DNA of 34,486 nucleotides from an uncultured virus (IMG/VR IMGVR_UViG_3300048502_000088) (IMGVR_UViG_3300048502_000088:62001-96486), one strand, 5' to 3'. Positions 12,410-31,770 are shown, numbered from the stretch's first letter. A program made the numbers and translations. Notes: a model not told the origin generated them from the sequence alone.

Positions 12410-12526
12410 TGATCTCAGGGTAACCCTTGACAGCGGGCGCAGCCCAGGCTAAACTGACAGCGTATTTAAAATCCCAACGGAGCCTAAAAAAGAGCGCTTG
12501 CTCCGTGCGCTGGAAAGGCACCCCTC

Positions 12527-13448
12527 GTGCATAAAAATCAAATAGTCGTTTGCGTAAAACAGGACGGAAAAATCCTCCGCGAATCTCGCGACAGAGAGTC
12601 GGGAGATACCGTATCCATGCCCTTCGGCTCCGAGTACACGGTACTGGTAAAAAACCTCAACTCCGTGCGTGCCCAGATCAATATGGCCATCGACGGCGAG
12701 GACGCGGTCGGCGCCGTGATCATCGGCGCTAACCAGAGCGTCGAGCTTGAGCGATTCGTTAAGGGCGGCAACCTCACGCAGGGCAACCGCTTTAAGTTCA
12801 TCGAGCGTTCGGCGGCGGTCGAGGCTCATCGCGGGATCGGGGCCGAGGATGGCCTGGTGCGGGTCGAGGCGTGGCGAGAGAAGATAGAACCGTACACGTA
12901 CATCCCGGTGGCTTATCCTGTGCCCTCACCGGGACCAGGCCTCTGGTATCCTCCCTACCCGGCTCCCTACCTGCCTCCGTATCGACCGCGCCCCTACTGG
13001 GAGCATCCGTACGGAACGTGGTGCAATGCGACAGGCGGCACTACGTGGCCGATCAATGCCGCCAACAGCGCCGCAACAGCGCAACAAGCTTCAGCGGCCA
13101 GAACACCAATAGCGGACCCAGCCTCCGCCAGCGGTCATCTATTCAGGCGCGCGGAGCGAAGATGGGGCCATTACGAGGCGCGCCTGGCCCCGCCGTCTCC
13201 TCCACCCACGAAGGCATCACGGTCCCCGGCGGCATCAGCAACCAGCAATTTACTCTCGCCTCCCGTTTCCCGCTGGAGCCGACATCCTCAGTGATCGTCC
13301 TGAAACTGCGCGGGGATGTCGATGGCGTGCTCCGGTTGCGGAGCCAATCACCGTGGCGCACAAACTCACCTGTGGGACGTGCGGCAAGAATAATAAGCAC
13401 GGGAACCTGTTCTGCGGGCGTTGCGGCGCGGGGCTGGCGCTGGCCTGA
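12527..13448 (+). pseudogene. Phage hypothetical protein with C-terminal double Zn ribbon, broken by two frameshifts
   Basis: First frame PFGSEYTVLVKNLN...FKFIER; second frame GITVPGGISNQQF...VIVLKLRG; third frame EPITVAHKLTCGTCG...FCGRCGAGL, TGA at 13448. Confidence 0.7.
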
Positions 13449-16045: not shown

Positions 16046-16384
16046 TCAACGTTGCCATACAACTCCGCAGTTGACGGTTTCGCGCAACTCAACCCGCGAA
16101 ACCAATTCGATTTTATTGCCGATCCACCGAGCAATGATCTCGCAGGTTGGGTTCGGCATGAAGTCATTGAGGCACCGATGATCGAGCGCGTCTTTAATCG
16201 GCTCCCACAAACGCTTCAGTTCGGCGTAATCCACCACCCACCCCATTGTGGCGTCAATCTCGCCAGTTACCTCCAGGCGCACGCGGTAGGTATGTCCGTG
16301 CATTCTGTGGCACTTGTGGCCATCGGGCACGTTGGGGAGATAGCGAGCCGCGTCGAAACTGTCTTCAAGAAATATCGTCATCAT
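16046..16384 (-). CDS. queD: 6-carboxy-5,6,7,8-tetrahydropterin synthase
   Basis: FDAA...KCHRMHGHTY...GWVVDY..LK...LDHR.LND...NPT.E.IA...L.ET; first Zn-ligand His position reads Arg (FDAARYL). Confidence 0.9.
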   Translation of the reverse strand: MMTIFLEDSFDAARYLPNVPDGHKCHRMHGHTYRVRLEVTGEIDATMGWVVDYAELKRLWEPIKDALDHRCLNDFMPNPTCEIIARWIGNKIELVSRVELRETVNCGVVWQR

Positions 16385-17803: not shown

Positions 17804-18484
17804 TCATGATGACACCTTGATCTGTCTGGCAATAAATTCGGAGTAAGCAGGTGGAATCGACTCCGAAAGTTCGTCGATTTTCATCCAGTCTATCCCCATT
17901 GCCTCAAAGCCCCAAGATTGAGGAAGAACCACCCCGATTGGATTCCCGCGTGTCTCCTTTGGCTTAGCGTAATGCCGTTTCTCTTGCGCGATGTTCCGGA
18001 CCTTCGCGCCATAAACCCCAAGGGTTTTATCGGCATGGCGACAAGGACCGGGGGTGCTGATTTCACAGTTGGACTCGAAATATCGATGGCGGCGCAATTG
18101 GAAACCGTGAGATTGCAAATTGAACATGCTTCCGCAGAGCATCACGGCATCTTTCAACGGAGCGCCAAATACATTTTCGATGACATAGGGCAGACGACTT
18201 CTCTTCAGCATCGCCCGAACTGGAGCGATGAGATCGGGATGCTTTCGGGCGTTGGTCATCGTCTTCAGCGCGCAATAGTGTTGGCACGGAGGGCTTGCCC
18301 AAATGAAATCGAAATGTCGCAACCACTCGTAAGTAAAGGCTGGGCTCAGGGCATCAGATTGGGTAAACTGTTCTCCGCAATATCTCGGCTGTGGGTTGAT
18401 GTCTACGCCGTGAACCTTGAACCCAGCCCTCTGCAAACCCTTCGTTACGCCCCCGGCTCCGCAGAAAAGATCCAGCGCCTTCAT
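17804..18484 (-). CDS. Phage-type short C5 DNA cytosine methyltransferase
   Basis: LDLFCGAGG (motif I), ASPPCQ (IV), IENV (VI), R.R.FE (VIII), MGIDWM...SIPPAYSEFI. Confidence 0.9.
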   Translation of the reverse strand: MKALDLFCGAGGVTKGLQRAGFKVHGVDINPQPRYCGEQFTQSDALSPAFTYEWLRHFDFIWASPPCQHYCALKTMTNARKHPDLIAPVRAMLKRSRLPYVIENVFGAPLKDAVMLCGSMFNLQSHGFQLRRHRYFESNCEISTPGPCRHADKTLGVYGAKVRNIAQEKRHYAKPKETRGNPIGVVLPQSWGFEAMGIDWMKIDELSESIPPAYSEFIARQIKVSS

Positions 18485-18696
18485 GCTGACACCATCGTTA
18501 CTTGTGATTCCAGCGGCGCAAGCCTCCAGCCCGGTAACAGCGAGGCAACGTCTTCGTCTGCCAAGCTCCGCATCTGGATTATGGTCAAGTCCATGCTTCG
18601 CAGTTCCATGCTTCGCAGGTCCATGCTTCGCAAGTCCATGCTTCGCAGGTTGCGGACGATTGCAAGTATCTCGTCCAGCTTATTGTCGGGGTTCAT
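18481..18696 (-). CDS. Small protein with (LRSMD/E)4 repeat
   Basis: 15-bp in-frame tandem repeat at ~18587-18650; ATGA overlap with the methylase start. Confidence 0.5.
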   Translation of the reverse strand: MNPDNKLDEILAIVRNLRSMDLRSMDLRSMELRSMDLTIIQMRSLADEDVASLLPGWRLAPLESQVTMVSA

Positions 18697-18721
18697 GTCT
18701 GCCACGAATCTCACTAACCAC

Positions 18722-18750
18722 ACCCTATCACCGCGCGCACCGTATGTCAA
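18722..18750 (-). promoter_or_regulatory. Sigma70-like leftward promoter
   Basis: TTGACA-N17-TAGGGT with TG extension on minus strand. Confidence 0.6.
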
Positions 18751-18863
18751 TAAGCGTCAAATGATTATTTTGGCTTGAGGGGGGAATCCATAAAAAGTGG
18801 ACCGCGCAGTGCTTTTTGCCGCCTTTTCGGTTGTTTCGCCTAATCGAAAGATTACCGGGCGAG

Positions 18864-19218
18864 GCCGGTCGCCGGTCGCCGGTCGCCGGTCGCCGGGTCG
18901 CCGGTCGCCGGTCGCCGGTCGCCGGTCGCCGGTCGCCGGTCGCCGGTCGCCGGTCGCCGGTCGCCGGTCGCCGGTCGCCGGTCGCCGGTCGCCGGTCGCC
19001 GGTCGCCGGTCGCCGGTCGCCGGTCGCCGGTCGCCGGGTCGCCGGTCGCCGGTCGCCGGGTCGCCGGTCGCCGGTCGCCGGTCGCCGGTCGCCGGGTCGC
19101 CGGTCGCCGGTCGCCGGTCGCCGGTCGCCGGTCGCCGGTCGCCGGTCGCCGGTCGCCGGTCGCCGGGTCGCCGGTCGCCGGTCGCCGGTCGCCGGTCGCC
19201 GGTCGCCGGTCGCCGGGT
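18864..19218. repeat. Heptamer tandem array (GCCGGTC) x ~50 with a few 8-nt GCCGGGTC variants
   Basis: Directly visible, ~355 bp. Confidence 0.97.
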
Positions 19219-19253
19219 TTCCATCACACCATCGGTCGATCACATTATTCCGC

Positions 19254-19282
19254 TTGACACGGTTTCATGTTTTTGGCATACT
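19254..19282 (+). promoter_or_regulatory. Sigma70-like rightward promoter, probably leaderless mRNA
   Basis: TTGACA-N17-CATACT; ATG at 19289. Confidence 0.65.
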
Positions 19283-19288
19283 CTAAGT

Positions 19289-19486
19289 ATGACAAGCACA
19301 ACAGAGCGGTACCTGATGACGACCGACGGCGGCACCAGCTGGGAGCGGGTCACCCGCGCCATGCTGATGGCCGTACTTGACGCGCGCGGGGTGTCCCGCT
19401 GGGACCGCAAGCAAGCACTGGCAGAGGCACTGGCCGGCATGGAGCCGCAACCCCTGCCTGGCGTAAGATTCCGGGCTTGCTGCTAG
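19289..19486 (+). CDS. Hypothetical protein
   Basis: [15 protein letters not shown]...; directly after promoter. Confidence 0.55.
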
Positions 19487-19524
19487 CCTCTCTGCGCAGT
19501 GAGTGACTGCGCATAACTTATAGA

Positions 19525-19543
19525 GTCACTTGGAGGTGACGAA
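19525..19543 (+). promoter_or_regulatory. RBS hairpin GTCAC-TTGGAG-GTGAC (also 19877-19893 and 34459-34477)
   Basis: 19-bp identity with 34459-34477; covarying ATCAC/GTGAT copy at 19877. Confidence 0.65.
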
Positions 19544-19782
19544 TGTTAGCCTGGACCGATACGACCGTCGAGAACTTCAGAGCGGCGTCGCTGGCAAATT
19601 ACGCGCAGGAATTTGCCGCATCGCGCCGTCCTGATGATGACGCTATGGTCAGCGATGACGCTACCGTGGCCACGCCGAGCGCGCTGTACCGCGCGTATGT
19701 CTATGCTGTCTATCATTTGCTCGAGCGACCAGTAAAGCGCGTCGCGCGTAAGATTGCCCACTCGGGATACTGGGGATACTGA
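19543..19782 (+). CDS. Hypothetical protein
   Basis: GGAGGTG RBS. Confidence 0.55.
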   Translation: MLAWTDTTVENFRAASLANYAQEFAASRRPDDDAMVSDDATVATPSALYRAYVYAVYHLLERPVKRVARKIAHSGYWGY

Positions 19783-19897
19783 TATGACACAGCCGGTGGG
19801 GCTGAATGCCGGTAACCGGAACGTGCTCTGTACAACGTATAGCGCGCGTCCCGCTGATCGGGACTAAAGTAAGGCAATCACTTTGGAGGTGATAGAG

Positions 19898-20020
19898 ATG
19901 AGATACGCAGAGTTTTATCATTTTTCGACAGGTTACATTGCAGGCACGATCCCGCCGCAATTCTCAGATTCGTTCTCACGGTCGCGGGAGACTCGGAAGT
20001 TTCAGGAGGTGTCCGCATGA
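19898..20020 (+). CDS. 40-aa hypothetical protein, possibly truncated
   Basis: GGAGGTG RBS; MRYAEFYHFSTGYIAGTIPPQF...; stop overlaps ATG 20017. Confidence 0.5.
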   Translation: MRYAEFYHFSTGYIAGTIPPQFSDSFSRSRETRKFQEVSA

Positions 20021-20322
20021 TCCGGGAATACCGGGACCTGAAACCCACTGACCTTTCTGTCGTTACCGTGCTGGCCACGCGCGATGCACGGAACGACTAT
20101 GGCCAGTCGCGGACATGGACGCTGAAACACCATACTGCGGGGTTCGAGTGCGCAGGTGCCGGTGTCCGCTCCACTGTTGAAAAATGGAGCGTCACCTCAG
20201 TTTCGAATGGCTCCACCTTCGGCAATTCGTTTCTGAACGAATCAGACGCGCGCGAGGTGTTTGGATCTGACAAGCCATGGTATCGGGACACCGCGCGGTT
20301 CCCGTATTCCAAGGCCAGCTAA
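20017..20322 (+). CDS. Hypothetical protein
   Basis: AGGAGGTG RBS. Confidence 0.6.
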   Translation: MIREYRDLKPTDLSVVTVLATRDARNDYGQSRTWTLKHHTAGFECAGAGVRSTVEKWSVTSVSNGSTFGNSFLNESDAREVFGSDKPWYRDTARFPYSKAS

Positions 20323-20435
20323 ACCTCGCTGGACCTTAACTCCCCTGCCCTGGTACGCTCCATGCGTACCAGGGCTATGCCCGGTTACAGGCACTCTCCC
20401 GCGCGTGGGTGACGCGCGATACAAATCATGGAGGA

Positions 20436-20474
20436 TACTTTCCGTTAGGCGAGTTAACCGGGAAACCACCCCGC
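20436..20474 (+). repeat. Intergenic module M1
   Basis: TACTTTCCGTTAGGCGAGTT shared with 21099-21118; 27-bp GGCGAGTTAACCGGGAAACCACCCCGC identical to 22944-22970. Confidence 0.85.
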
Positions 20475-20524
20475 ACGCCTGGCCAGCTAGAAAACGGCCA
20501 TAAACCGACAAGGAGAAACTAAAA

Positions 20525-20908
20525 ATGACACTCACTCAAGTGTTCCGAATCGAGGATTTTTCCGGCACTGTGATTGCTGCCGATCAGGCCGCTGAGACGG
20601 CTCTGGCCGCAATGCCGCGAGACGGCTATTGCATCGATCAGTTCGGCCAATGGTTTGACCGCGATCAAATGCTGGAAATCGTGGCCGCTGCGGGCAACTA
20701 CCGCCCGCATGTGGTGGTCGATATGGACGGGCACGAGATCGCATCTTTTGACTACCGGGATGCGGCGGAGGCATGGGCCGAAGAGCGAAGATTGAGTTTT
20801 TGCGCCTCCCGTCCGGATGGGGATCGCGGTTACCTTCCCATGAGTGTGATTCCCGCTGGCCCCCGTCAGCGCGCGCACCAACACAGCACGAAATGGGTGG
20901 CTGCATAG
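20525..20908 (+). CDS. Hypothetical protein
   Basis: AAGGAG RBS. Confidence 0.6.
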   Translation: MTLTQVFRIEDFSGTVIAADQAAETALAAMPRDGYCIDQFGQWFDRDQMLEIVAAAGNYRPHVVVDMDGHEIASFDYRDAAEAWAEERRLSFCASRPDGDRGYLPMSVIPAGPRQRAHQHSTKWVAA

Positions 20909-20939
20909 AGTGACGCGCGATATAAAGCATAAGGAGATA

Positions 20940-21125
20940 GTCAGCCGTCGCGGTCAGCCGTCGCGGTCAGCCGTCGCGGTCAGCCGTCGCGGTCAGCCGT
21001 CGCGGTCAGCCGTCCAACCAATAAAACGATAACCTTCGTACGATAACCTTCGTACGATAACCTTTGTACGTCGCCAAAACCACGATCCTGAAGGGCGGTA
21101 CTTTCCGTTAGGCGAGTTTACCGCG
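20940..21125 (+). repeat. Intergenic module M2: (GTCAGCCGTCGCG) x ~5.8, (CGATAACCTTCGTA) x3, CACGATCCTGAAGGGCGGTA hairpin block
   Basis: Directly visible; same layout as 22737-22970. Confidence 0.9.
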
Positions 21126-21185
21126 AACCGAAACCAAAACCACAAACCCGGCGGGTGGCCGGTGAAACAACCCCCAGGAGAAAAA

Positions 21186-21431
21186 ATGTACACAATCGAA
21201 CGAAGCAACGGAGACAGCGCCACGGCCAACAGCAAGGCTAGCGCTATCAGCACGGCACGGCGTATGCTCGGAGTCGCGCGCGTTTATCGCGGCGCGCAAT
21301 ACCAGACAGACAGACCCATAGGGCGCATCGGAGACCGTGAGTACTGCACCGGCCTGGATATTTGGCGTTCACGCGCAAACGCGGCTCGTGAGACCAACGG
21401 ACACGCTGACGTGGTTATTACGTGGGGCTGA
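21186..21431 (+). CDS. Hypothetical protein
   Basis: AGGAG RBS, ATG 21186. Confidence 0.6.
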   Translation: MYTIERSNGDSATANSKASAISTARRMLGVARVYRGAQYQTDRPIGRIGDREYCTGLDIWRSRANAARETNGHADVVITWG

Positions 21432-21529
21432 AGGGTGAAGTAACCAGCGGTTACTTCACCTGGCAGCAGCGCGCCGTGCGCATCACGGCATTGCAGTTAG
21501 AGTCACTGGAGCCTGGGAGGGCAGGAAAA

Positions 21530-22735
21530 ATGGATAAAGCGCAGAGAATCGAAACCATGCGGGGGCTGTTACCCCGCGACAGTAAAGCGCAGACCGTGCG
21601 CGGGATCGCAAGGGCGCTGAGGGGCGGCGGTAGGGCGCGGTACGCCCTTACCGGGTACGCGAGAGTGGAGTCGCGGGACGCGTACCATCAGGCACGCCTC
21701 CGTTCTCCGAATCCATTCAGGGACGACGTGCTGGTGGCGCGGAAGGGCAAGCGTAAAGACTGGTATGCCGCGCAATCCCGGCGACGGAAGGACGCCCGAT
21801 ATATGCGTCTAGGCGCACTGACTTGCGACGCGCTCGGGCATGTGGCGCGGAACACCCAACAGAAGCTTATAGCGGCGGGCGTGTCAGTCCGGGCGGTTGC
21901 GGCTCTCGGCAGGCTGGGTGTGGATCGGCGCGCGGCGCGCATCGCGGCCTGGTTGAGCGCTCCGGCGCGGGCGGCAGAGGCTACCATGAGCGCTTTCGAC
22001 GGTCAGGCATACGCGGCGGCGGAGGCGCTGCACACGCGCCAGTCTCAGTACGGCAGCTCCCGCGCGTCTTGGGTGTGCGGCCTCTCAGCCACGGAGGAAA
22101 CGGATTGGAACGCCTACAGTAAGCGGTACGGCCACCCGGCAAATTGGAAAAATCCCGCGTATAGCGTGGACGTGCAGGCGATCCCCGGCGGTTACGAGGT
22201 CCGGGCGCGGGTGTGCAGCGTGCGCGACAAGGTAACGTATGTGCCGATGCCGCGCGGTGCTGACTTTGCGCACCGGGCGCGGCTGGCGTCGGACGTGTAC
22301 TGCATCGTGACCGGCGCGGATACCGTGGATCGGTACGACGTGCGCGGGCGTAAGACGGGCGTGGCGCTGCTGATCGGCGGCGCGTGGGAGCACGGAGCAG
22401 AACGAGCGGACTGTGAGCGTGAGAACGCACGTAAGGCCGAGATCGCGGCGCGGCAGGCACGGGAAGCGGCGCAGACACGCAGGCAGGACCGCCGGGAGCG
22501 GTTATTCTCCCGCCTGGCGTCGGTCCCTGTGGTCGCGGACATGATCCGCGCTGAGGGCGCGTGTATGGCCGGTATCCAGTCCTGGTGCTCGGCTCGCGGC
22601 GTGGACCCGGCGGCATCGGTGCCGTTGCGGGTGCTGGCTCACGACGCGGCGGCGGCGGGCTACGCCCTCAAGGTGGCGCGGCGGGTTCTGGCGAACGCGG
22701 CTCGTGAGACCATACGTGGGGCTGAAGGCCGCTAA
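21530..22735 (+). CDS. Ala/Arg-rich hypothetical protein (~400 aa)
   Basis: Long ORF, GGGAGG/AGGA RBS before ATG 21530; C-terminal GAC.AGI.SWC motif. Confidence 0.65.
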   Translation: MDKAQRIETMRGLLPRDSKAQTVRGIARALRGGGRARYALTGYARVESRDAYHQARLRSPNPFRDDVLVARKGKRKDWYAAQSRRRKDARYMRLGALTCDALGHVARNTQQKLIAAGVSVRAVAALGRLGVDRRAARIAAWLSAPARAAEATMSAFDGQAYAAAEALHTRQSQYGSSRASWVCGLSATEETDWNAYSKRYGHPANWKNPAYSVDVQAIPGGYEVRARVCSVRDKVTYVPMPRGADFAHRARLASDVYCIVTGADTVDRYDVRGRKTGVALLIGGAWEHGAERADCERENARKAEIAARQAREAAQTRRQDRRERLFSRLASVPVVADMIRAEGACMAGIQSWCSARGVDPAASVPLRVLAHDAAAAGYALKVARRVLANAARETIRGAEGR

Positions 22736-22736
22736 C

Positions 22737-22970
22737 CAGCCGTCGCGGTCAGCCGTCGCGGTCAGCCGTCGCGGTGAAGCCGTCGCGGTCAGCCGTCGCG
22801 GTCAGCCAAACGATTAACCGCGCAACCACGCGCGACCGTGTACTAACGATTTAGCAGGCATCCGGGCATTTTATTCACGATCCTGAAGGGCGGTAATTTC
22901 CGTTAGGAGAAGTTACCGGACTTCAGCACTAAAACCACGATCCGGCGAGTTAACCGGGAAACCACCCCGC
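22737..22970 (+). repeat. Intergenic module M3: 13-mer array x ~5.4, CACGATCCTGAAGGGCGGTA block, M1 tail
   Basis: Directly visible. Confidence 0.9.
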
Positions 22971-23030
22971 GTAATAGACGCGCATAAAATAGGAGAAAAA
23001 TATGAGATCAGGAGATCAGGAGATAAGAAG

Positions 23031-23384
23031 ATGAAAAGCAACAGAGACCTCGGATATGAGCCACTCTACGGTGAGGCGGGACAACAATTAGGCGCAGAGA
23101 AATCATGGGAAAACGACTACACCTACGTATCGACCCTTTCGCTCCACGTGACAATCGGTCGCCGTGGTGCAGAGTACCGCGTGTACGGGTATACCTACCA
23201 CAATGAGCAGGACGGATCGCGGGAAGGGATCAGGGGCAGATGTTGCGGGCGCGCAAAGAGACCCGAGGAAGCGATGAGCCAGTTTCGCAAAAATGCAGCT
23301 TCTCTTGGGTGGCACATGCAGGGCGTCGATAAGGTGCTGCTCGACATGCGTGAGTCCCTCGTTGACGAGTGCGTCATTGATTGA
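23031..23384 (+). CDS. Hypothetical protein
   Basis: Preceded by tandem AGATCAGG repeats giving stacked AGGAG RBSs. Confidence 0.6.
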   Translation: MKSNRDLGYEPLYGEAGQQLGAEKSWENDYTYVSTLSLHVTIGRRGAEYRVYGYTYHNEQDGSREGIRGRCCGRAKRPEEAMSQFRKNAASLGWHMQGVDKVLLDMRESLVDECVID

Positions 23385-23540
23385 CCTCATAACCCTCAGG
23401 GGCGTCATAACGCCGGCCGCCGGTCGCCGGGTCGCCGGGCATGCACAGGCGACCGATCTGCTCGAGCAATCCGTCCGCACCGACCCGGGCGAGGCGTCGC
23501 GGTGGGGGACTTCAATACGTATCGGCGGACGAACTGACCT

Positions 23541-23747
23541 ATGAGGAAAAATATGCTACGACAATCAGTTATTGACTACGCTGAGTTTGAGAAAGCCACC
23601 CGCGCTGAAATACTCGCAGCCAAAAGACTTCCGACCGATGACGAGCTGGACCGCGTAATAGACGCGCGCGGGTGTTCCCGTAATGTCGCGCGCATACACC
23701 TGGGAGACTACAGGACCGAGCAGCGGCGGGACGCGGAAGGGCGGTAA
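23541..23747 (+). CDS. Hypothetical protein
   Basis: 68-aa ORF in same-strand tract. Confidence 0.5.
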   Translation: MRKNMLRQSVIDYAEFEKATRAEILAAKRLPTDDELDRVIDARGCSRNVARIHLGDYRTEQRRDAEGR

Positions 23748-23821
23748 CTACAGTTACGCCACTTACCAGCATCCGAAACCAAAACCATAAACCAAATTAC
23801 TAACAGGAGAAACAACCCCAC

Positions 23822-23965
23822 ATGAAACGATACTGGATCTACTTCCGTGGCACGCGCAACGGCGAACATATTACCGCTCCGACCATGGCCGCCGCTAAGG
23901 CTGCATTCGCAGCTAACAACGGCATCCCCTCAACATCCGGCTACATCGCAGGCAGGGCGGCATGA
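23822..23965 (+). CDS. 47-aa hypothetical protein
   Basis: AGGAG RBS; MKRYWIYFRG...; TGA overlaps recombinase ATG. Confidence 0.5.
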   Translation: MKRYWIYFRGTRNGEHITAPTMAAAKAAFAANNGIPSTSGYIAGRAA

Positions 23966-24684
23966 GAAAGCCCAAGCCCGTAGCGCGCCATTGGTACGGC
24001 TACGTCAGAGTCTCAACCGAGGAGCAAGACACTTCCGGCCTGGGCCTCGAATCCCAGGCCGAAAAAATACAAGGCATGGCGACAGCTAAGGGGATAACCC
24101 TCAAGGGCGTCATAACGGACGGTGGTTACAGCGCTAAGTCACTCGACCGTCCTGGTATGCAGCAACTCTTAACCCTCATGCGTGCGGGTGAGGTGGCCGG
24201 TGTCATCATCAGTAAATTAGACCGTCTAACCCGCTCCGTGAAGGATCTATCTGTCATCCTGGACTTACTCACGGATCGGGACATAAATCTTATTAGCACT
24301 TACGAGACCCTGGACACCGGCACTGCCGGGGGGCGTATGATCCTGCATATCACAACCACGATTGCGCAGTGGGAGCGCGAGGTAATCTCCGAGCGCACGC
24401 GGGACGCCTTACGCGCCAAGGCTCGCCGGGGCGAGCACGCGGGCATGGTCCGGTACGGCTACCGATCCACCGGTAAGAGGGGCCTGCAAGTCCCTGACGA
24501 AGCAGAGCAGGCCATCATAACCCGCATTACCGAAGGGCGGGCCTGCGGACTATCTATGCAGGCGATTGCCGATCAGCTCAACGCGTGCGGGCTGGCCACC
24601 CGGCGCGGGAGTGCCTGGCGCGTGCAGTATGTCGCCAACGTCCTCAGCGGCCTGGCGCGGGCCGGGGCGGTTCCGGCGGCCTGA
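23962..24684 (+). CDS. Serine recombinase (resolvase catalytic domain plus short recombinase domain)
   Basis: GYVRVSTEEQ, D.G.SAKSLDRPG, KLDRLTRS, AQWERE.ISERT, YGY, IA..LN..G..TRRG..W. Confidence 0.93.
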   Translation: MRKPKPVARHWYGYVRVSTEEQDTSGLGLESQAEKIQGMATAKGITLKGVITDGGYSAKSLDRPGMQQLLTLMRAGEVAGVIISKLDRLTRSVKDLSVILDLLTDRDINLISTYETLDTGTAGGRMILHITTTIAQWEREVISERTRDALRAKARRGEHAGMVRYGYRSTGKRGLQVPDEAEQAIITRITEGRACGLSMQAIADQLNACGLATRRGSAWRVQYVANVLSGLARAGAVPAA

Positions 24685-24815
24685 AGTGACCCCCTGAAGG
24701 GGCCGCTCCCGCGTTAGGCGGGCTGCCGAGGCGCGGAATTGTAATCCGCGATGCGCCAGACAGTGCCATAAACCACCCCTTCGCGTGGCCTTCGCGTAAG
24801 TGGTACGATCAGTGT

Positions 24816-25133
24816 ATGTCACACAAGCTAACCAAACTAATCATCTCAGTACCCTCGGAGTTGCTGGCGGGGATAGACGCACAACTCGACAAGTACACCT
24901 TAACAACCCGTAGCGCGTATGTGCGTGGCGTGCTATTGGAACATCTGAGGGGTAAGGGTGTGCAATTGGATGGTGCGGGCAAGCCTGTTGGTGTCGTGAA
25001 TGCACCTGCACCACCCCAACGGCCAGTATGCGACTATGATGGCTGCCACACCCCGAACGGCGACTATAAGACATGCTTGGACGGCACCAAGTACGCGCGA
25101 CAAAACTGCCCGTGCGCGTGCCACAAGGCCTAA
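24816..25133 (+). CDS. Ribbon-helix-helix (CopG-like) protein with Cys-rich tail
   Basis: ISVPSELLAGID...TRSAYVR..L. Confidence 0.65.
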   Translation: MSHKLTKLIISVPSELLAGIDAQLDKYTLTTRSAYVRGVLLEHLRGKGVQLDGAGKPVGVVNAPAPPQRPVCDYDGCHTPNGDYKTCLDGTKYARQNCPCACHKA

Positions 25134-25616
25134 TCCCGGCCCTTGGTGTCTGAATCGCATTGAATCACTTGGATGTTGATTTGCTGCTGGTTGTCCGGCT
25201 GGAGCTCGCCGGTGAGCTTGCCCAGCATCTCCAGATTTTTGTGCAGTTGGTTGGCGATCGGGGCCAGTACGGTTAGGTCAGCACCGACGGCAACATCATT
25301 GCCGTCTTCATCCTTTATGACCCTTACGGCTGTCTCGCACTTGTCCGCGTGACGCTCCAGGCGGGCGCGGAGATTATCGACGCCTTGCCGTACCAATCCG
25401 AGCACGGGCGCGTCTCAATAAGATAGGGGAAGTTCGCTCTGCTCTTCTCAGTATCGGTATGATTACCTTGGTCTTATACCTATGTAACGCCATCGGAGAA
25501 ACAGGCGGTACAAGCCCCTCAGAAACAGCCCTCAACGGCATCCCATCCATGAATCTTTTGATGATTTGTGCCTTTTGGGGGTGGTTTTCGACTGCGAATT
25601 GCTGTCCGGATGCCAT
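25130..25616 (-). pseudogene. Terminase small subunit-like protein split into two frames (25374..25616 and 25130..25405)
   Basis: N-half HP....I...G.PLR.VS...ALHRY HTH-like; C-half LEMLGKLTGEL...QINIQVI; halves overlap out of frame. Confidence 0.45.
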
Positions 25617-25714
25617 TTCCTATGCCATTGTAACGCCTAAGCGATACAAATAGCGATACAAGCGATACAAGCCTTTAGAATCATAAGGTTACAGAGATAA
25701 AAGGAAAGACTGTT

Positions 25715-25921
25715 GCCCGCGAACGCGGCCATGCCCCGCGAACGCGGTCAGTTATGGACGCGCGCGAGGTGTTGGTGGTAACCGGAAACCGCCCCAAGGT
25801 AGACTGAAATCCTAAACGCCTGATGAGCAAGCCGTTGGCTCTGACATGGACTGCGCAGTGGCCGGAGCGGCAAGCATTACCGGCCACCAAGCCAACTGCC
25901 CGCGAACGCGGTCAGTTATGG
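25715..25921 (+). repeat. CCCGCGAACGCGG x3; longer CCCGCGAACGCGGTCAGTTATGG x2
   Basis: Copies at ~25715, ~25735, ~25899. Confidence 0.8.
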
Positions 25922-26112
25922 TATAACGGGAATGCACTGGAAAGGGGCGCGGCGTTCGCCCTTTCTGGTGCCACGGCGCCGACCGGACCTGAGCACCGCT
26001 ACCTCACGGTGGCGCTCAGGTCCTTCGTGCTACTTACCGGCGCGCTGGCCAGCGGGGCAGCACCCCCGGCCCCAAATTACCCTTGACTCCCCCCACGCCC
26101 CCGTGATACCTT

Positions 26113-26198
26113 ACAGAAGTCACCTGCTGCGGGCTAACCCCCGCGTCACCTCCAACCGACCACAAACCCCTCAGCCTCGGCTGGGGGGTTTCGCGTTT
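26113..26198 (+). ncRNA. Candidate small RNA with anti-Shine-Dalgarno seed
   Basis: Upstream TTGACT...TGnTACCTT; seed CGTCACCTCCAA (26144-26155); terminator-like AAACCCCTCAGCC/GGCTGGGGGGTTT; no ORF. Confidence 0.5.
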
Positions 26199-26206
26199 CA
26201 GCGGCA

Positions 26207-26502
26207 CTGAGATAAGGTACCCTATCTCAGCGCCCACCCTATCTCACCACCCTATCTCAAAATAAGTCTTTTGTTTTGTGTTACTTGCGATACTTTGAGA
26301 CAAGTAAATCTCTGAGTGGGGCATATTCCGCGATTCGTTCTCCATAAGTGGGTATATATGTTTTTCACCGGAAAAGGTATAGAGGCCCTATAGGGAGATT
26401 TTTTAGTCAAGGTACCTTAACTCACTTATCTCAAATTAAATAAGTATATATATATCAATAGTTTACAGGTGAGCTAAGTTGCCTCGCAGCCTATCTCACC
26501 TT
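26207..26502. other. AT-rich region with TATCTCA iteron-like repeats and IHF consensus (ori- or pac-like)
   Basis: TATCTCA at ~26223, 26240, 26253, 26427, 26492; inverted copy at 26208; TATCAATAGTTTA (26453-26465) matches WATCAANNNNTTR. Confidence 0.5.
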
Positions 26503-26656
26503 GGCTCAAAAGGAGGGGTACCCATACTCAGATGGGTCTGGGGAGGTCGGGGCAGGATATTTCCATGTTTTCGCCCTATCTTTCGCTTTTATTTGCATTT
26601 GACTATTGCAATCGTCTTTGCGATTGACTTAAGATGGTTTCAGAGGAGCAGGACAA

Positions 26657-27079
26657 ATGACAACCCACAAAACTCTTGACGGCGCGCGGATGGCGGCCAA
26701 ATCTGGGCAAGTGCGCTCTATCGTGGAGATCGATCACGCAACCGAGGGACGTTGCTACATCGGCGTCCGCGCGACCATGGCGGCCCTTAATGTGGCCTTG
26801 GCTCACAAGCCGATGGCGGAAATTAAACGCTTGATTGCCGAGCACACAATACTGACCGATACCGAGATCGCCGCGTCCCGCGAACAGGCGCTCCGGGATC
26901 ACACTCACTGCGAGCGATGCGCAAAAAAGATAGACGGAAACGCGGCCTACTCGCAGCAGGAGAGGTACATGGGCCACGCTGTAAGGGCCTGGTACTGTGA
27001 GCCATGCCGCAACCTGCTCGCCAATATTGGGGTTGGCGAGTACACAGCATTGCAGGAGAGGGCGGCGGAGGCGAAGTAA
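26657..27079 (+). CDS. Hypothetical protein with C-terminal CxxC...CxxC
   Basis: GAGGAG/AGGA RBS; HCERC...YCEPC. Confidence 0.65.
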   Translation: MTTHKTLDGARMAAKSGQVRSIVEIDHATEGRCYIGVRATMAALNVALAHKPMAEIKRLIAEHTILTDTEIAASREQALRDHTHCERCAKKIDGNAAYSQQERYMGHAVRAWYCEPCRNLLANIGVGEYTALQERAAEAK

Positions 27080-27205
27080 TGGGAAAGTTTGCTCGCAAAA
27101 CACTACGTGATCGTGCGCACGACATCGCTCGACTGTTGGCGGCTCGGGACGAGTACATAACGTCAAGCCCAACCTGGAAGCCAGCGGCGGCGGCACGGGA
27201 TTAAC

Positions 27206-27409
27206 GTGAGCGGCCCACTCAGCCACCTGCCCCCGGAACGTCGCCGGGAGATCGCCCGCGAGGCGGGGCGCGCGTGCAAGACGCGGGCCGGAAGGGCGCC
27301 GTGCCACTATCCCGATGCGCCCGATTCGTGCAAGCGTTGCCGCGCCCGCATCAGCGAGAGAAAGTCGAGGCTAAGAAAGCGGGAGGCGTCAGTTCAGGGA
27401 GCCCCCTGA
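27206..27409 (+). CDS. Small basic protein
   Basis: LPPERRREIAREAG motif. Confidence 0.45.
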   Translation: MSGPLSHLPPERRREIAREAGRACKTRAGRAPCHYPDAPDSCKRCRARISERKSRLRKREASVQGAP

Positions 27410-27474
27410 AGGGGTCACGGGACAGCACGAACTACGCTGGTAGTGTCGTGACAGGTCAGAGGTTACCACAGTCA

Positions 27475-27912
27475 TTATATTTCCAGAAGCTTTTCGAGCA
27501 TTTGCGTAGCCATCGAGTCCGGCGTGGTGGGGATCATCCCCCACTGAAACCTCGCGTCCCCCGTCTCCGTAACGGTCACTTCCCACCCCAGCTGAGGCTC
27601 TTGGCGGCAGTCCCATGTCACCTTGCCTCTGCCAGTGTCAAAGGCCACGTGCAGCGTAGCGCCATCATCAACGACACTACGCAGGACAAGATCATTAGGC
27701 CGTTCGTCCTGAATCGCAATTATGTCGGCTCCGTTGGATTTTTGTTTTAGTTCTGAGATGTGCGCCCTGATTCGGTCCTTCAATTCTGTCCATAGCGGCA
27801 GTCCGTTGGCGCTCTTGATTCTTTGTTCTTCAACGAACCTGGCGGTGTCGAGCCTCTTGTCCTCCCGCTTCTGGTTTAGTTTTCGTATGGCATCATCAGA
27901 CCAATCGGCCAT
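27475..27912 (-). CDS. Hypothetical protein
   Basis: GGAGG RBS before ATG 27912. Confidence 0.6.
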   Translation of the reverse strand: MADWSDDAIRKLNQKREDKRLDTARFVEEQRIKSANGLPLWTELKDRIRAHISELKQKSNGADIIAIQDERPNDLVLRSVVDDGATLHVAFDTGRGKVTWDCRQEPQLGWEVTVTETGDARFQWGMIPTTPDSMATQMLEKLLEI

Positions 27913-27952
27913 GGCAACCCCTCCCGCTGTACGTTCGTACCCGATCTTGAGT

Positions 27953-28162
27953 TTAATTGCGAAGTCGAGGTGCATCTAGATTGGGGTCGTCGGCGTCCGT
28001 TTTGGGGCGGGGCGCGCCCGCTTCTTTTCGGCGAAGTTTCTTTAGCTGCGCTTCGTCCTTCAGGAGTGCCGATTTCGGAACCGCCAGAACCATCCGAACG
28101 GCATTATCGAAGCGCTCCCATTCCGTATTGCCCGGAACGTTTGGTGCGGGGTGTGGTTTCAT
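27953..28162 (-). CDS. Small basic protein, paralog of 31771..31959
   Basis: ERFDNAVRMVLAVPKSALLKDE aligns with EKFDRAIRASLSVSKEAVLKEE. Confidence 0.6.
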   Translation of the reverse strand: MKPHPAPNVPGNTEWERFDNAVRMVLAVPKSALLKDEAQLKKLRRKEAGAPRPKTDADDPNLDAPRLRN

Positions 28163-28591
28163 GCTGGGTACATCATACCGCTTTTCTACTTGTCCAGAGA
28201 TCGCCAGTCCGTAACGTGGCCAAGGTTGTTTAGCGAGCTGCACGTAGAGGCGCTGAATGATCCTCCGCCGTCAGATTTCGCTCAGCAACTATGATTCTGA
28301 TGGGGCATTGGAGTGCAGTGCTCCAACCCGATGCGGCATATTACATTTCCATCGGAATAGGCGCCGACGGTCCACGGTCCTTCTGTGCGACGGCTTGCGA
28401 GCGCAACGCTCTGTGTGTTTATGGATTCTGTTTCCACGCGCAATCCTCCTGTGTTCAAATGAGATTGAGCGAAGAAAGCAGAACGCCAGCATAGCTTCCG
28501 GCTTCGACGGTGTACCAGACCGAAGACTCCTAAACGGCTATGGACAGGGTACGTGTACCCGATGCCAGTATAACAAACTGGCCGGGAGCAT

Positions 28592-29422
28592 ATGACACCA
28601 GCCGTTCCGCTCAGTGAAATCGGGAGATGTACCGGGCGCTTTTACCTGGACGAAGCGCGCCCGCTAATTGCCATGCGATGCTATTTCGACGGTAGCGAAG
28701 GCAGCGACGACGGCGGAGCAAAATGGCTCACGCTCGCTGGGTATATCGCTAGCGACGGCTTCTGGGGAAGATTTCAGGGGAAGTGGGAAACAATGCTCAA
28801 GGAGCGCTACCCAATCGCCCCGTATATCCACATGAATCCACTCGTCATGCACGAAGATCCGTTTGAACGGGTGGTCGGCTGGACAAACGGCAAGATGACC
28901 GAATTGGTAACCGACGCCATCATGGTCCTTAACGGACTGGACAAGGAGGAGTTCTGTTCATTTGCGTGCAGTATAGACCTGAACGCACATAAGCGGCTGA
29001 TTGCTGAGGGCGTGAAAATGCCATCAGAGCCGATTGAGATTCTGACACACGCATGCGTGTTGGGTGCCTTTACCTGGTACTTTAGGAACCGACCCGGAAA
29101 GATGGAGATGGCTTATATTTTCTTCGATCAGGGAGAGCCATTCCTTGAAATTATTCGCAAGATATGGATGGGAAAAAGCGCTCCGGGACGGGTTACAGTG
29201 GAGCCAATATGGGGGCTGATCGCTGGTGTTCAGCCTATGGACATGCGCAATACCCCACCAATCCAAGCTGCCGACATGCTGGCATGGGCGCGGACACGTA
29301 GCCTGTCCTCAAAGAAGCGTTTATATCAGCACTTGGACAAAATAATAAGCACGGTCATCCCCCAAGACAGCGTGCGGCTCGGAGAGGAAAAAATGCGGGA
29401 ACTGGCAAAAGTAAACGCCTAG
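28592..29422 (+). CDS. DUF3800-like protein
   Basis: YFDGS...LAGY...W..F...W...HM...FFDQG...IQAADMLAW. Confidence 0.7.
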   Translation: MTPAVPLSEIGRCTGRFYLDEARPLIAMRCYFDGSEGSDDGGAKWLTLAGYIASDGFWGRFQGKWETMLKERYPIAPYIHMNPLVMHEDPFERVVGWTNGKMTELVTDAIMVLNGLDKEEFCSFACSIDLNAHKRLIAEGVKMPSEPIEILTHACVLGAFTWYFRNRPGKMEMAYIFFDQGEPFLEIIRKIWMGKSAPGRVTVEPIWGLIAGVQPMDMRNTPPIQAADMLAWARTRSLSSKKRLYQHLDKIISTVIPQDSVRLGEEKMRELAKVNA

Positions 29423-29474
29423 TTAGGGTAATTATATACTTGCCTAAAGTTAACGAAACCCCTATAATTAAAGT

Positions 29475-30428
29475 ATGGAACGTGAGCCAACCAGCCTTCA
29501 GGAAGCCATTCTATACTTTGCTGATCCGACAAACTGCCGAGACTATTTGGTGAAGCGCCGCTGGCCGGATGGCGTGGTTAAATGCCCGACGTGCGGCTGC
29601 GATCAAGTAAAGTTCCTGGCGAACCAGAACCGCTGGTGGTGCCCGAACGAACACTCCCAACGGCAGTTCAGCCTGAAGACTGGCACGATCTACGAAGAAT
29701 CGCCCCTCGGTCTGGACAAGTGGCTCACAGCAACCTGGCTGATTACGAACTGCAAAAACGGCGTGTCGTCATGCGAGATCGCGCGGGCGCTGAACATCAC
29801 GCAGAAAACGGCATGGTTCCTGGATCATCGCATTCGGCTATCGTTCGGTCTGGCGAGTCCCGACAAGTTCACCGGGCATTGTGAGGCGGACGAAACTTTC
29901 ATCGGGCAGAAGTCGCGCAACATGCACCGCGACGTTCGCGCCCGCAAGATCACCGGAACGGGCGGCAAGGATAAAACCGCCGTCATGGGCATTCTGGAAC
30001 GTGGCAAGGACGGCAAGCCAAGCCAGATGCGAACGACCGTGATTCCGAACCGCAAGAAGAAAGCCCTACAGGCTGAAGTCCGCAAGCACGTTGAGGCCGG
30101 ATCGGCGCTGTACACTGACGCGCTCCAGTCCTACACCGGACTGACTGAGTTTCAGCACGGCGTTGTGGACCATGCCGTGAAGTATGTCGATGGGAAAATT
30201 CACACGAACGGCTGCGAAAACTTCTGGAGTCTGACCAAACGGATGCTGAACGGTACGTATGTTTCCGTGGAGCCTTTCCACTTGTTTCGCTACTTGGATG
30301 AGCAGAGCTACCGGTTCAACAATCGGAAGATGACGGACGCGGAGCGGTTCGACTTGGCCGTGCGTGGGATCGTTGGTAAGCGGATCATGTACGATCAGTT
30401 GACCGGGAAGATGGACGCGACGGCATGA
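29475..30428 (+). CDS. IS1595-family transposase
   Basis: RWPDG..CP.CG Zn ribbon, EADET, TD, HTN..ENFW, YLDE..YRFN; TTGCCT-N17-TATAAT promoter overlapping the left TIR. Confidence 0.95.
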   Translation: MEREPTSLQEAILYFADPTNCRDYLVKRRWPDGVVKCPTCGCDQVKFLANQNRWWCPNEHSQRQFSLKTGTIYEESPLGLDKWLTATWLITNCKNGVSSCEIARALNITQKTAWFLDHRIRLSFGLASPDKFTGHCEADETFIGQKSRNMHRDVRARKITGTGGKDKTAVMGILERGKDGKPSQMRTTVIPNRKKKALQAEVRKHVEAGSALYTDALQSYTGLTEFQHGVVDHAVKYVDGKIHTNGCENFWSLTKRMLNGTYVSVEPFHLFRYLDEQSYRFNNRKMTDAERFDLAVRGIVGKRIMYDQLTGKMDATA

Positions 30429-30480
30429 ACTCTGCCATATCGTAAACCTTCACGCGGGAAGCGCCGCCCACGGTAAGCAC

Positions 30481-31440
30481 CTAGCCGATTTTTTGACGCA
30501 GCCAGTCAAATGCAGATTGCCGTTCAGTTATGTTCGGTTCGGAGAATAACCCCATTGCATCGTCTCGTTGGATCGCCAGTATCCTGCGACCAATGAACTC
30601 TGCAATTGGCGGCGCTACCGCGTTGCCAATGAGTCGCCCGCGTCTACCGTCCAACCGGGCGGGAATCCCATCAGTTTCTCGCACTCGGTCCAGGTCAAGT
30701 TTCTGGCCACATAATATTGGTCTGTCAGAGTGACCGCCCTGATGCTTTCCAGTTTGGGCGCGTATCGTGGGGCAGATGCCTTTTGCCGAGGTGTACCCAA
30801 AGCCTCCGCGACGCTGAACCAAAAGCGGAGCGTCTGAGATAAACTCTCCATGAACGCGGGGTCTAGTGTCCGTTCGGCCCTCTCCTCTCGCCGGAGTATC
30901 CCTAAGCAATTTGCTGGGCTCAGAATAGAACCGATGGGAAAGCGCCGATCTATAAGATCCGACAAGAAATACTCTTTCGCGATTGTGGGGAAGGCCCGCG
31001 CTGAGAGTGTTACACGCAAACCATACGCCCATATACCCGATCTTTTCAAGTTCGTCGATAACTGACTCAAAGGCGGACCCCCCGTCTGAACTGAGGAGGC
31101 CCGCGACATTCTCCAGGACAATCCATGATGGCTGAACTTTTCCAGCAAGTTCCGCAAACCTGAAAAACAGTCCGCTTCTGGCTCCGTGGATTCCTTTGCG
31201 TTTAGAATTTCCATGGCTGACGTCTTGACACGGCCAGCCGGCCGCCCAGACTTCAGCTTGGGGGATGTCTTTCGCTTTGAGCGTGGTGATATCGTCATGA
31301 AGTGGAACCTCCGGCCAGTGCCGCTTTAGAATTCGTTGACAATGGGGATCGATCTCGCAGTGGAATGCTGGCTTCATGCCAGCCCACTGAAAACCAAGAT
31401 CAAAACCGCCTATTCCGGCAAAAAATGATGCGAAGCGCAT
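30481..31440 (-). CDS. C5 cytosine methyltransferase, alpha polypeptide (motifs I-VIII and X)
   Basis: FAGIGG, GWPCQ, ENV, R.RVF, GNAV; no canonical motif IX in this frame. Confidence 0.92.
   Translation of the reverse strand: MRFASFFAGIGGFDLGFQWAGMKPAFHCEIDPHCQRILKRHWPEVPLHDDITTLKAKDIPQAEVWAAGWPCQDVSHGNSKRKGIHGARSGLFFRFAELAGKVQPSWIVLENVAGLLSSDGGSAFESVIDELEKIGYMGVWFACNTLSAGLPHNRERVFLVGSYRSALSHRFYSEPSKLLRDTPARGEGRTDTRPRVHGEFISDAPLLVQRRGGFGYTSAKGICPTIRAQTGKHQGGHSDRPILCGQKLDLDRVRETDGIPARLDGRRGRLIGNAVAPPIAEFIGRRILAIQRDDAMGLFSEPNITERQSAFDWLRQKIG
30615..31298 (-). CDS. Nested alternative-frame methyltransferase beta polypeptide carrying motif IX
   Basis: 227-codon ORF wholly within the alpha gene ending RNLTWTECEKLMGFPPGWT; start uncertain (31298 or 31214). 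Confidence 0.75.
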   Translation of the reverse strand: MTISPRSKRKTSPKLKSGRPAGRVKTSAMEILNAKESTEPEADCFSGLRNLLEKFSHHGLSWRMSRASSVQTGGPPLSQLSTNLKRSGIWAYGLRVTLSARAFPTIAKEYFLSDLIDRRFPIGSILSPANCLGILRREERAERTLDPAFMESLSQTLRFWFSVAEALGTPRQKASAPRYAPKLESIRAVTLTDQYYVARNLTWTECEKLMGFPPGWTVDAGDSLATR

Positions 31441-31462
31441 TATAGGACCCCCGCACATGTTC

Positions 31463-31645
31463 TCATGGCGTCGGCAGTACCCCCGCTGCCCGAAGTGCCA
31501 ACTGACGAAGCCACGCTGACAATTCTAAACCGTCTCTGGCGGCCGCTTTCAGGAGAGCATCTTTCTGCTGCGCTGGAATGCGCATGCGAACGACGGCATC
31601 CTTTAGCGCTTTTGGGCGCTGTTTTTTCCGTTGCGCCTTCTCCAT
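31463..31645 (-). CDS. Ribbon-helix-helix regulator upstream of methylase
   Basis: VRMRIPAQQKDALLKAAARDGLELSAWLR. Confidence 0.7.
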   Translation of the reverse strand: MEKAQRKKQRPKALKDAVVRMRIPAQQKDALLKAAARDGLELSAWLRQLALRAAGVLPTP

Positions 31646-31653
31646 TAGAATAC

Positions 31654-31682: not shown

Positions 31683-31770
31683 TATCACTGGATTATGTTT
31701 TTATCGATCCATGCCCTTCCATAGAGACATCGGCTGAACGGGGAAAATTCTACAGGGCTATACTTGTTAC

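Follow-up and report, generated by a model that had tools for sequence, protein, structure and literature searches.

The window analysed here is a stretch of 34,486 nucleotides (nt) that makes up the final 34.5 kb of a 96,486-bp IMG/VR record of an uncultured virus (estimated completeness 94%). Our subject is an array of small ORFan genes, interspersed with repeats, that leads into a serine recombinase gene between positions 19289 and 24684. An initial annotation, made from the sequence alone, had read this array as an undescribed, non-integron platform on which cassettes are gained or lost at the repeats, by the recombinase or by homologous recombination. The array belongs to the hyperplastic early-gene region of a roughly 96-kb tailed peat phage, and what it displays is linker-mediated modular shuffling resembling that of promoter-early stem-loop (PeSL) cassettes, here in a lineage of phages that is unrelated, with modules built differently and with natural variation of unusual richness.

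The late genes of the window are read leftward (terminase, 10256–12409; portal, 3301–6342; and others) up to a cytosine methyltransferase gene (17804–18484). The small-gene set is read rightward from about 19250, and the studied region closes with the 240-amino-acid (aa) recombinase (23962–24684). As the initial annotation had it, there are about ten small same-strand genes: ten plus-strand open reading frames (ORFs), most with strong Shine–Dalgarno sites, lie between 19289 and 23965. We refer to these ORFs by g-numbers, from left to right g65 (19289–19486), g79 (19543–19782), g40 and g101 (together 19898–20322, with an ATGA overlap), g127 (20525–20908), g81 (21186–21431), g401 (21530–22735), g117 (23031–23384), g68 (23541–23747) and g47 (23822–23965). 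None of the ten matched a Pfam or PHROG family, and the protein atlas matches of g401 were all below 0.9. The start of the recombinase overlaps the stop of the 47-aa g47 as ATGA at 23962–23965, as had been noted. The only good site in a sigma-70 consensus scan (three plus-strand sites against 2.5 expected, other promoter types lying outside the scan) is a predicted promoter at 19254–19282 on the plus strand (TTGACA, 17 nt, CATACT, TG; 10 of 12 matches), which is kept in both close relatives described below. The linkers and small genes described in the following are likewise on the plus strand.

Among isolated phages there is no close one, and a blastn search of the region against 50,697 phage records gave no match. 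Scanning viral contigs with the recombinase as query yielded ten loci, two of them close: L005, on a 14.5-kb contig (G002; 98% aa identity), and L006, on a 94.9-kb contig (G001; 96%). The same contigs scanned with g401 gave no relatives, a pattern search for a dimer of the 13-mer repeat found only G001, and a metagenome scan with the recombinase returned 41 loci, with best identities of 59–61% and no further close relative. Further variants came from Logan contigs of four peat runs (X1–X4) from four studies, placed on positions 19230–25200; the bins of X4 without cover (20630–20829, 21830–22429 and 23030–23229) were not used for conclusions. Relative to the window's genome, G001 is circularly permuted, with its late genes in the same order in blocks of 92.7–99.5% identity and one 1.9-kb stretch at 99.7%; across both relatives the late genes keep that order at 92.7–99.7% identity.

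Set side by side, the three sequences reveal the small-gene array as a patchwork whose conserved pieces are the spacers. Of the ten ORFs that precede the recombinase, only three have a homologue in L006 (g65, g79 and g81) and only three in L005 (g65, g79 and g47), and other small ORFs, about a dozen in all, occupy this interval in the two relatives; nine of the relatives' cassettes or fragments, eight small ORFs among them, gave no significant Pfam family. The first gene, g65, exists as diverged alleles (69% aa identity in L005, 62.5% in L006). The 3' two thirds of g79 are shared with the relatives, and its 5' part holds a replaceable 75-nt segment (joint 19562 -> 19638 in X4). The cassettes g40, g101 and g127 are absent from both L005 and L006, and g127 is also skipped in a variant from X2. 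The best conserved small gene is g81 (98.8% aa identity to L006), whereas g117 is absent from the relatives and is replaced in X3 and X4 (joint 23007 -> 23509). Only the last 50–60 nt or so of g68 remain in L006 (23700–23825 corresponding to L006 5879–6004). The cassette g47 is present in L005 and absent from L006 and X4, where the recombinase starts at the g47 start position, so that its overlap with the preceding stop is not fixed. Nucleotide differences from L006 fall mainly at third codon positions in g81 (8 of 9) and in the recombinase (38 of 49); both are therefore real genes under purifying selection.

Every repeat that the initial annotation had listed was recovered where it had been placed, far beyond chance. 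Self-comparison of the 96.5-kb genome confined the dispersed repeats to 18–24 kb of the window, the one exception elsewhere being a long tandem array. The 20-mer CACGATCCTGAAGGGCGGTA occurs exactly at 21081 and 22876 (two matches at up to three mismatches against 0.01 expected; none of 100 shuffles reached two) and forms the head of a 43-nt repeat with two copies 91% identical. An exact copy of the 20-mer in contig L015 was rejected as a chance match, since it lies inside unrelated coding sequence and the contig is otherwise dissimilar. A 27-mer is exact at 20448 and 22944 (0.00 expected; two matches in none of 100 shuffles), GTGACGCGCGATA lies at 20409 and 20910 with no other copy in the 96.5-kb genome, and the AAACCAAAACCA leaders are found only at 21131 and 23776. 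Stem-loops of the form CCGTTAGG stand at 20442, 21105 and 22900, and CGTTAGG occurs a fourth time at 24712, past the recombinase. Hairpins following stop codons were equally borne out, with perfect 12-bp arms at 20347 and a 12-bp core within the palindrome at 21427–21467. To these we add elements that the initial annotation had missed: a heptamer array of 50 copies, a 14-mer present three times, linker families at 19470–19542 and 21464–21511, and the core motif CTGAAGGSCGSTAA, with six matches at up to one mismatch against 0.04 expected.

These elements are assembled into linkers that recur before different genes. Linker family 1 (19470–19542) combines a shared gene tail (ending FRACC before the stop), an 8-bp stem-loop and the Shine–Dalgarno block AGAGTCACTTGGAGGTGA, and it appears twice in each relative, ahead of different genes (2160–2238 and 2800–2875 in L006; 4010–4100 and 4500–4595 in L005). 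At 21427–21511, a stem-loop that overlaps the stop of g81 (palindrome at 21427–21467, 19 nt, 84%, with the perfect 12-bp core; folding z −3.84) is followed by linker family 2, the leader CAGCAGCGCGCCGTGCGCATCACGGC..AGAGTCACTGGAG; this leader (21464–21511) precedes three unrelated genes, in the window, in L005 (5105–5152) and in L006 (3400–3432). The movable intergenic block at 19785–19894 holds an ATG, a 22-nt copy of the 3' end of g401 (19796–19817), stem-loops and a Shine–Dalgarno site. Its ATG leads into g401 in other variants, and its 98-nt spacer (19797–19894) follows g79 in the window and g81 in L006 (4488–4585, 98% identity). Judged by its sequence, the block after g79 looks like an emptied cassette site. 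A Shine–Dalgarno block of the form CACTT(T)GGAGGTGA occurs three times in the window (19525–19540, 19877–19893 and 34461–34473); the fold of the first two copies puts the ribosome site in a small hairpin, and the third stands at the window's very end, before the next gene set.

Further right, the stem-loop past the g101 stop (20347–20375) has perfect 12-bp arms (20347–20358 and 20364–20375; folding z −4.55), and homology to L005 starts at 20369, inside its right arm. Intergenic block A (20409–20474) carries the first copy of GTGACGCGCGATA, a variant of the CCGTTAGG stem-loop and the first 27-mer, with joints at 20421 and 20437. Module B and its CA-rich leader (21081–21148) comprise the 43-nt module, a CTGAAGGGCGGTA head followed by a CCGTTAGG stem-loop, and form the crossover point of the deletion found in L005 and X3. 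Module C with the second 27-mer (22876–22970) is a long stem-loop with CTGAAGGGCGGTAA and its inverted copy as arms and a minus-strand match to the core motif at 22913–22926; its fold is moderately stable (z −2.06), whereas that of module B is not (z 0.05). Intergenic block D (23727–23821) is common to the three genomes and consists of the stop-codon stem-loop GGCGGTAAC..GTTACGCC, a CA-rich leader and a Shine–Dalgarno site, with joints at 23736 and 23751.

Stop codons are built into several of these linkers. A stop region CTGAAGG.CG.TAAC with a GTAAC/GTTAC stem closes g401, g68 and one L006 gene, all ending in AEGR; the same stop region closes g81 in another frame and has gene-free copies in spacers B and C. 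The last 45 nt or so of g401 are shared with the 3' end of g81, in the other frame at the end, and TACGTGGGGCTGAAGG terminates both genes in two different reading frames, so it has been kept as a DNA- or RNA-level element and not for the protein. Rfam gave no match over 18400–25400 at E values up to 1, and a degenerate stem-loop pattern had no match in the viral contigs. Several spacers also contain copies of nearby coding DNA: 23389–23412 matches the recombinase gene (24094–24117) at 23 of 24 positions, 22967–22983 matches g68 at 17 of 17 and 19796–19817 matches the end of g401 at 20 of 22 (91%). The first of these lies in a fragment spacer (23389–23504) that further holds a piece of the heptamer array, one 13-mer-like unit and 33 nt (23463–23495) equal to the end of an insert in L006 (1802–1834). 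On their sequence, we read these coding fragments as scars of earlier events.

Tandem arrays occupy the start of the small-gene set and two of its spacers. The heptamer array GCCGGTC (18864–19216, no strand assigned; 49.7 copies of period 7, 97% matches) separates the leftward late genes from the rightward small genes; its end lies 38 bp before the −35 element of the predicted promoter. The L006 counterpart is short and interrupted by a 440-bp insert, and in L005 the array is replaced by a 21-mer repeated three times. Arrays of the 13-mer GTCAGCCGTCGCG stand at 20940–21014 (5.8 copies) and at 22737–22807 (5.4 copies); the 13-mer array runs to about 40 units in L006, each of 10, 11 or 13 nt, and to about five in L005. 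The first of them shares an array spacer (20910–21070) with the second copy of GTGACGCGCGATA and with the three 14-mers (21026–21070), of which L006 has about two copies and L005 five. Units of the different arrays have a GCCG(G)TC core in common. A coding role was rejected, given units of 7, 10, 11 and 13 nt and open frames that merely reflect a stop-free unit. The arrays could possibly serve as operator arrays for a repeat-binding regulator, as slippage-prone sites that seed template switching or DNA capture, or as decoys for host nucleases. Between the two heptamer stretches of L006, positions 1393–1834 hold a promoterless 124-aa open frame, which over 98% of its length shows 73% identity with an inner segment of He_PIG/BACON_2 proteins of 700–2000 aa, named 'TIGR03437 family' by one source; the final 33 nt of this insert are those that recur at window 23463–23495. 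The insert looks, from its sequence, like captured cellular DNA, and array variability together with this fragment of a cellular gene points to the arrays as entry points for foreign DNA. Another array lies nearby, a 15-mer repeated four times at 18589–18650. Outside the window, genome positions 12382–12835 form a long tandem array with a period of roughly 24 nt; it probably breaks assemblies, because the G001 contig ends inside it.

The junctions between the window's order and that of its relatives and variants place these linkers at the breakpoints. The joint 21085 -> 23736, found in both L005 and X3, falls within GAAGGGCGGTA, 11 nt common to both copies. In the L005 form the 14-mer array and the head of module B are joined to spacer D and, compared with the window, g81, g401, g117 and g68 are gone. 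L006 joins 21434, at the end of g81, to the spacer at 19797 within the 10-nt TGGGGCTGAA, and the X2 joint 20437 -> 20943 runs between the two GTGACGCGCGATA blocks, with the loss of g127. The stop of g79 is connected to the start of g81 by 19783 -> 21186 in X1 and X3, and g401 is put directly after g79 in X2 and X3 by 19792 -> 21532 and 22692 -> 19844. In X4 the joint 23825 -> 23992 reproduces the L006 form without g47. Four different joints (21427, 21429, 21434 and 21435) lie beside the palindrome at the end of g81. Joints that go back (21503 -> 21008 and 22692 -> 19844) are explained by alternative linear orders like that of L006, and several joints recur in two runs of different studies. Cassettes also sit at different positions in different variants, as g401 does, and as does g140 (26657–27079), which follows the recombinase in the window but precedes it in L006 (84% aa identity). 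Gene order between modules, which the initial annotation had singled out for comparison, is thus not fixed: content and order differ among relatives and metagenome variants, with many junctions in or beside modules, and this supports the proposed gain and loss of cassettes at repeats; the module-by-module deletion that was predicted is seen as 21085 -> 23736.

We therefore favour, with moderate confidence, a model in which cassettes turn over by short-homology recombination between conserved linkers, through phage functions or template switching. ORFan cassettes would be read rightward from the one predicted sigma-70-like promoter at 19254, each bracketed by linkers that hold a stop codon in or beside a GTAAC/GTTAC stem-loop, then a leader with a Shine–Dalgarno site and, in two spacers, tandem arrays. 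The few linker families, recurring as direct repeats within the genome and across co-circulating relatives, would supply homology patches of 10–45 nt at which cassettes could be deleted, inserted, replaced or moved with their genes intact. The pathway may be of the annealing type, through phage exonuclease and annealase genes, or may be template switching, and several intergenic repeats would be leftovers of such events, pieces of adjacent coding sequence. In which direction each event ran is likewise a matter of interpretation. The genome encodes a YqaJ/RecE-type exonuclease (PF09588, 6.4e-10, 39.9 bits against a cut-off of 22; phrog_434, 2e-22), and from this analysis it is probably the phage's own YqaJ/RecE-type recombination genes that do the shuffling. 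Lambda Red recombines DNA of 22% divergence efficiently, as reported elsewhere (PMC2327257).

Fourteen joints were counted, 13 within 19289–23992 (of at least 15 joints) and one further joint; 23432 -> 19230 (heptamer ambiguity), 22740 -> 25130, 25152 -> 22722 and two joints at 24780 were not counted. Together they have 28 ends: 24 fall outside gene interiors, where 34% would be expected (binomial P 2e-8), and 13 within repeats or arrays, where the expectation is 15% (P 1e-4). These figures have to be read with the knowledge that the ends are not independent, that we chose the repeat intervals from the self-comparison and that contigs assembled from metagenomes stop at repeats, a possible bias of the joints toward repeats. 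Beyond these reservations, a number of observations tell against short-homology exchange at linkers. Both ends fall in a repeat in just 5 of 14 joints, the identical runs at crossovers measure only 10–13 nt, and some joints share 0–5 nt and sit exactly at start or stop codons (19783 -> 21186; 19792 -> 21532), a placement that suits illegitimate recombination plus selection better than homology. The RecT-like annealase is a weak phrog_561 match (6.4e-9) with no Pfam support. Inside the modules, neither a sigma-70 promoter nor a plus-strand U-tailed terminator is predicted, and RNAalifold on four copies of the CCGTTAGG stem-loop module yielded neither a compensatory pair nor the stem that was expected; because covariation is lacking in these four sequences, a regulatory role for the linkers is only assumed. 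Finally, the mosaicism of the neighbouring 24.8–34.5 kb equals that of the array, yet dispersed repeats are absent from this segment. Repeats therefore seem not to be required for plasticity, and the shuffling platform is not the bounded unit that the initial annotation had drawn.

Part of this evidence points to illegitimate, homology-independent recombination followed by selection for intact genes, with the repeats as regulatory elements or scars that mark events and do not drive them. Joints placed exactly at ATG or stop codons with 0–3 shared nt would be expected of such a process, as would the insertion of g47 between two ATGA tetramers, the fragments of the recombinase, g68 and the g401 end in spacers, the promoterless cellular-type frame within the L006 heptamer array, and the repeat-free yet equally mosaic neighbouring segment. 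Against it, repeats that make up 15% of the region account for 13 of 28 joint ends, three sequenced junctions lie within runs of 10–13 nt present in both parental sites, which exceeds chance microhomology, and the L006 module is a patchwork of the B and C copies, suggesting exchange between copies. As a full account we consider this rather unlikely. Since there are joints at start and stop codons with 0–5 shared nt and a repeat-free mosaic at 24.8–34.5 kb, however, illegitimate recombination with selection also contributes, and repeats appear to favour and mark exchanges.

The protein that closes the array is a genuine serine recombinase. Its Resolvase catalytic domain (PF00239, 6.6e-37) scores 127 bits, and 128 bits when the genome was scanned, against a cut-off of 23.3; added to this is the first half of the Recombinase domain (PF07508, 4e-06, profile positions 2–50 of 102 only). 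The protein matches phrog_95 at positions 87–309 of 651 and has the catalytic domain of TP901-1 integrase as its best solved match (9.3e-20). Its translation shows YVRVSTEEQ and KLDRLTRS, which we take to contain catalytic residues. It shares the PF00239 catalytic domain with the resolvase/invertase family and the large serine integrases, but at 240 aa it has no zinc-ribbon or coiled-coil part, unlike those integrases (roughly 450–700 aa), and no Pfam match to a resolvase-type helix-turn-helix domain was reported for it, unlike a classical resolvase. To judge from its domains, it is neither of the two. Could this small, co-transcribed serine recombinase cut and join at the stem-loop modules, as a phage-borne, integron-like platform of the serine type? 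Profile scans identify it as the sole site-specific recombinase in the genome, it occupies the same position at the 3' end of the array in all three genomes and it is under purifying selection. Palindromes of 27–29 bp follow stop codons, four joints cluster at 21427–21435 beside one of them, and the authors of the PeSL work left it open whether a targeted recombinase assists (PMC2839356).

We nonetheless rate recombinase-driven exchange as improbable, because junctions are found in at least five linker families that are unrelated to one another, the two perfect palindromes have no sequence in common, crossovers vary within a module (21427, 21429, 21434 and 21435; 23534, 23736 and 23751) and homologues occur without arrays. 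The family, of 227–249 aa, is widespread. Homologues at 57–61% identity adjoin terminase genes in metagenome contig L007 and in Terriglobia prophage L068, loci that have neither arrays nor module repeats, and the L068 prophage has its own tyrosine integrase; among six loci in a scan of genome contigs, the best (57%) is in a prophage of a Terriglobia metagenome-assembled genome without arrays. No serine recombinase is known to act on folded single strands. A more specific version, which we think if anything slightly less probable still, has the recombinase recognizing stop-codon stem-loops (GTAAC/GTTAC stems, some with a bulged base) and excising or inserting ORFan cassettes, the arrays being accessory or regulatory sites; if true, a phage would here possess a gene-capture platform that resembles an integron but relies on a serine recombinase. 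Conserved, and located downstream in the transcription unit of the cassettes, the recombinase is probably not the shuffling enzyme, and the part of the initial proposal that gave it a possible role in the exchanges found no support. To an assembly artefact, with chimeric contigs formed at repeats in mixed populations, we give almost no weight: although all comparison sequences are metagenome assemblies, assemblers do switch strains at repeats and arrays and G001 ends inside a tandem array, misjoining cannot create the whole genes that relatives hold and the window lacks, or the reverse, and the same junction was found independently in L005 and X3, the L006 form recurs in X4 and several joints were seen in two runs from different studies.

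Short-homology exchange between linkers has a close precedent in the PeSL cassettes of hyperplastic regions in T4-type phages (Arbiol et al. 2010, PMC2839356; Comeau et al. 2014, PMC4122927), and the claim that the system is of an undescribed kind was thus not sustained, as linker-mediated shuffling of ORFans is described there. In both cases repeated composite intergenic motifs are concentrated in an ORFan-rich variable region, the motif spans the upstream stop codon, a stem-loop, a Shine–Dalgarno site and a start codon, and close relatives differ by insertions, deletions and replacements located at the motifs. For PeSLs, homologous recombination at patches of less than 50 bp is proposed, and the authors themselves draw the integron analogy (PMC2839356). 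The differences lie in lineage and anatomy. The phage studied here is unrelated to T4, its terminase being at most 36% identical to that of Synechococcus phages; several distinct linker families are present and not one; and hypervariable 7-, 13- and 14-mer arrays lie within spacers, stop codons are embedded in stems and a serine recombinase gene closes the array. Whereas PeSL motifs each hold a strong sigma-70-like early promoter, none is predicted within the modules here. The PeSL stem-loop acts as a terminator or attenuator; in the region studied, the loops at 20347 and 21431 are very stable, and no plus-strand U-tailed terminator is predicted. In swapping non-homologous genes between conserved flanks and adding single ORFans, the region also resembles Botstein–Campbell exchange and lambdoid morons as that report portrays them (PMC2839356). 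Unlike the former, in so far as it is portrayed there, the linkers are repeated many times in one 5-kb stretch and within-genome deletion and translocation are seen; unlike morons, which carry their own promoter and terminator in that account, the cassettes have none predicted.

Integrons are arrays of promoterless same-strand cassettes with imperfect-palindrome ends, an upstream promoter and an adjacent recombinase gene. The region shares promoterless same-strand cassettes, palindromic ends, one upstream predicted promoter and the adjacent recombinase gene, but it has no IntI-type tyrosine recombinase (PF00589 gave no match in the 96.5-kb genome and was found in 14 of 14 control genomes), and its serine recombinase lies at the 3' end and not divergently at the 5' end. 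No attC-like core is common to the cassette ends, which carry at least three palindromes of unrelated sequence, and the junction position varies.

Beyond the array, the whole early half is patchy against G001 (window 24800–34486 and genome 1–20700), and 27392–32023 has no counterpart there. Shared promoter-like spacers in this half, such as 26551–26643, precede different genes. Directly after the recombinase, the first 190 nt or so of a 105-aa ORF (24816–25133) are replaced in L006, X3 and X4 (joint 24780 -> 25028). By eye its N-terminus seems ribbon-helix-helix-like, but its best Pfam match is only at E 0.22, and no homologue stands beside the Terriglobia recombinase. A paralogous pair of plus-strand genes of about 317 aa (29475–30428 and 33313–34269) lies about 3 kb apart and matches phrog_25593 (E 6e-39 and 2e-38). 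The window contains a QueD-like gene (16046–16384) and two cytosine-5 DNA methyltransferase genes (17804–18484 and 30481–31458), whose sequences suggest that the phage modifies its own DNA. Its host may be an acidobacterium, as hinted by its occurrence in peat metagenomes, the Terriglobia recombinase homologue (57%) and the 'TIGR03437 family'-like fragment in a relative.

No description of this particular system was found in open-access literature text. Linker-mediated ORFan shuffling is documented mainly in T4-type phages, and the authors of the PeSL study state that there was as yet no evidence in other viruses (PMC2839356). The region presents the same shuffling logic in an unrelated, uncultured peat phage, with many variants coexisting in natural samples, cassettes caught at different positions beside apparently empty sites and a site-specific recombinase gene at the end of the array. 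This combination makes the choice between general recombination and a targeted enzyme directly testable, and the roughly 25 ORFan cassettes are probably candidates for host-interaction or anti-defence functions.

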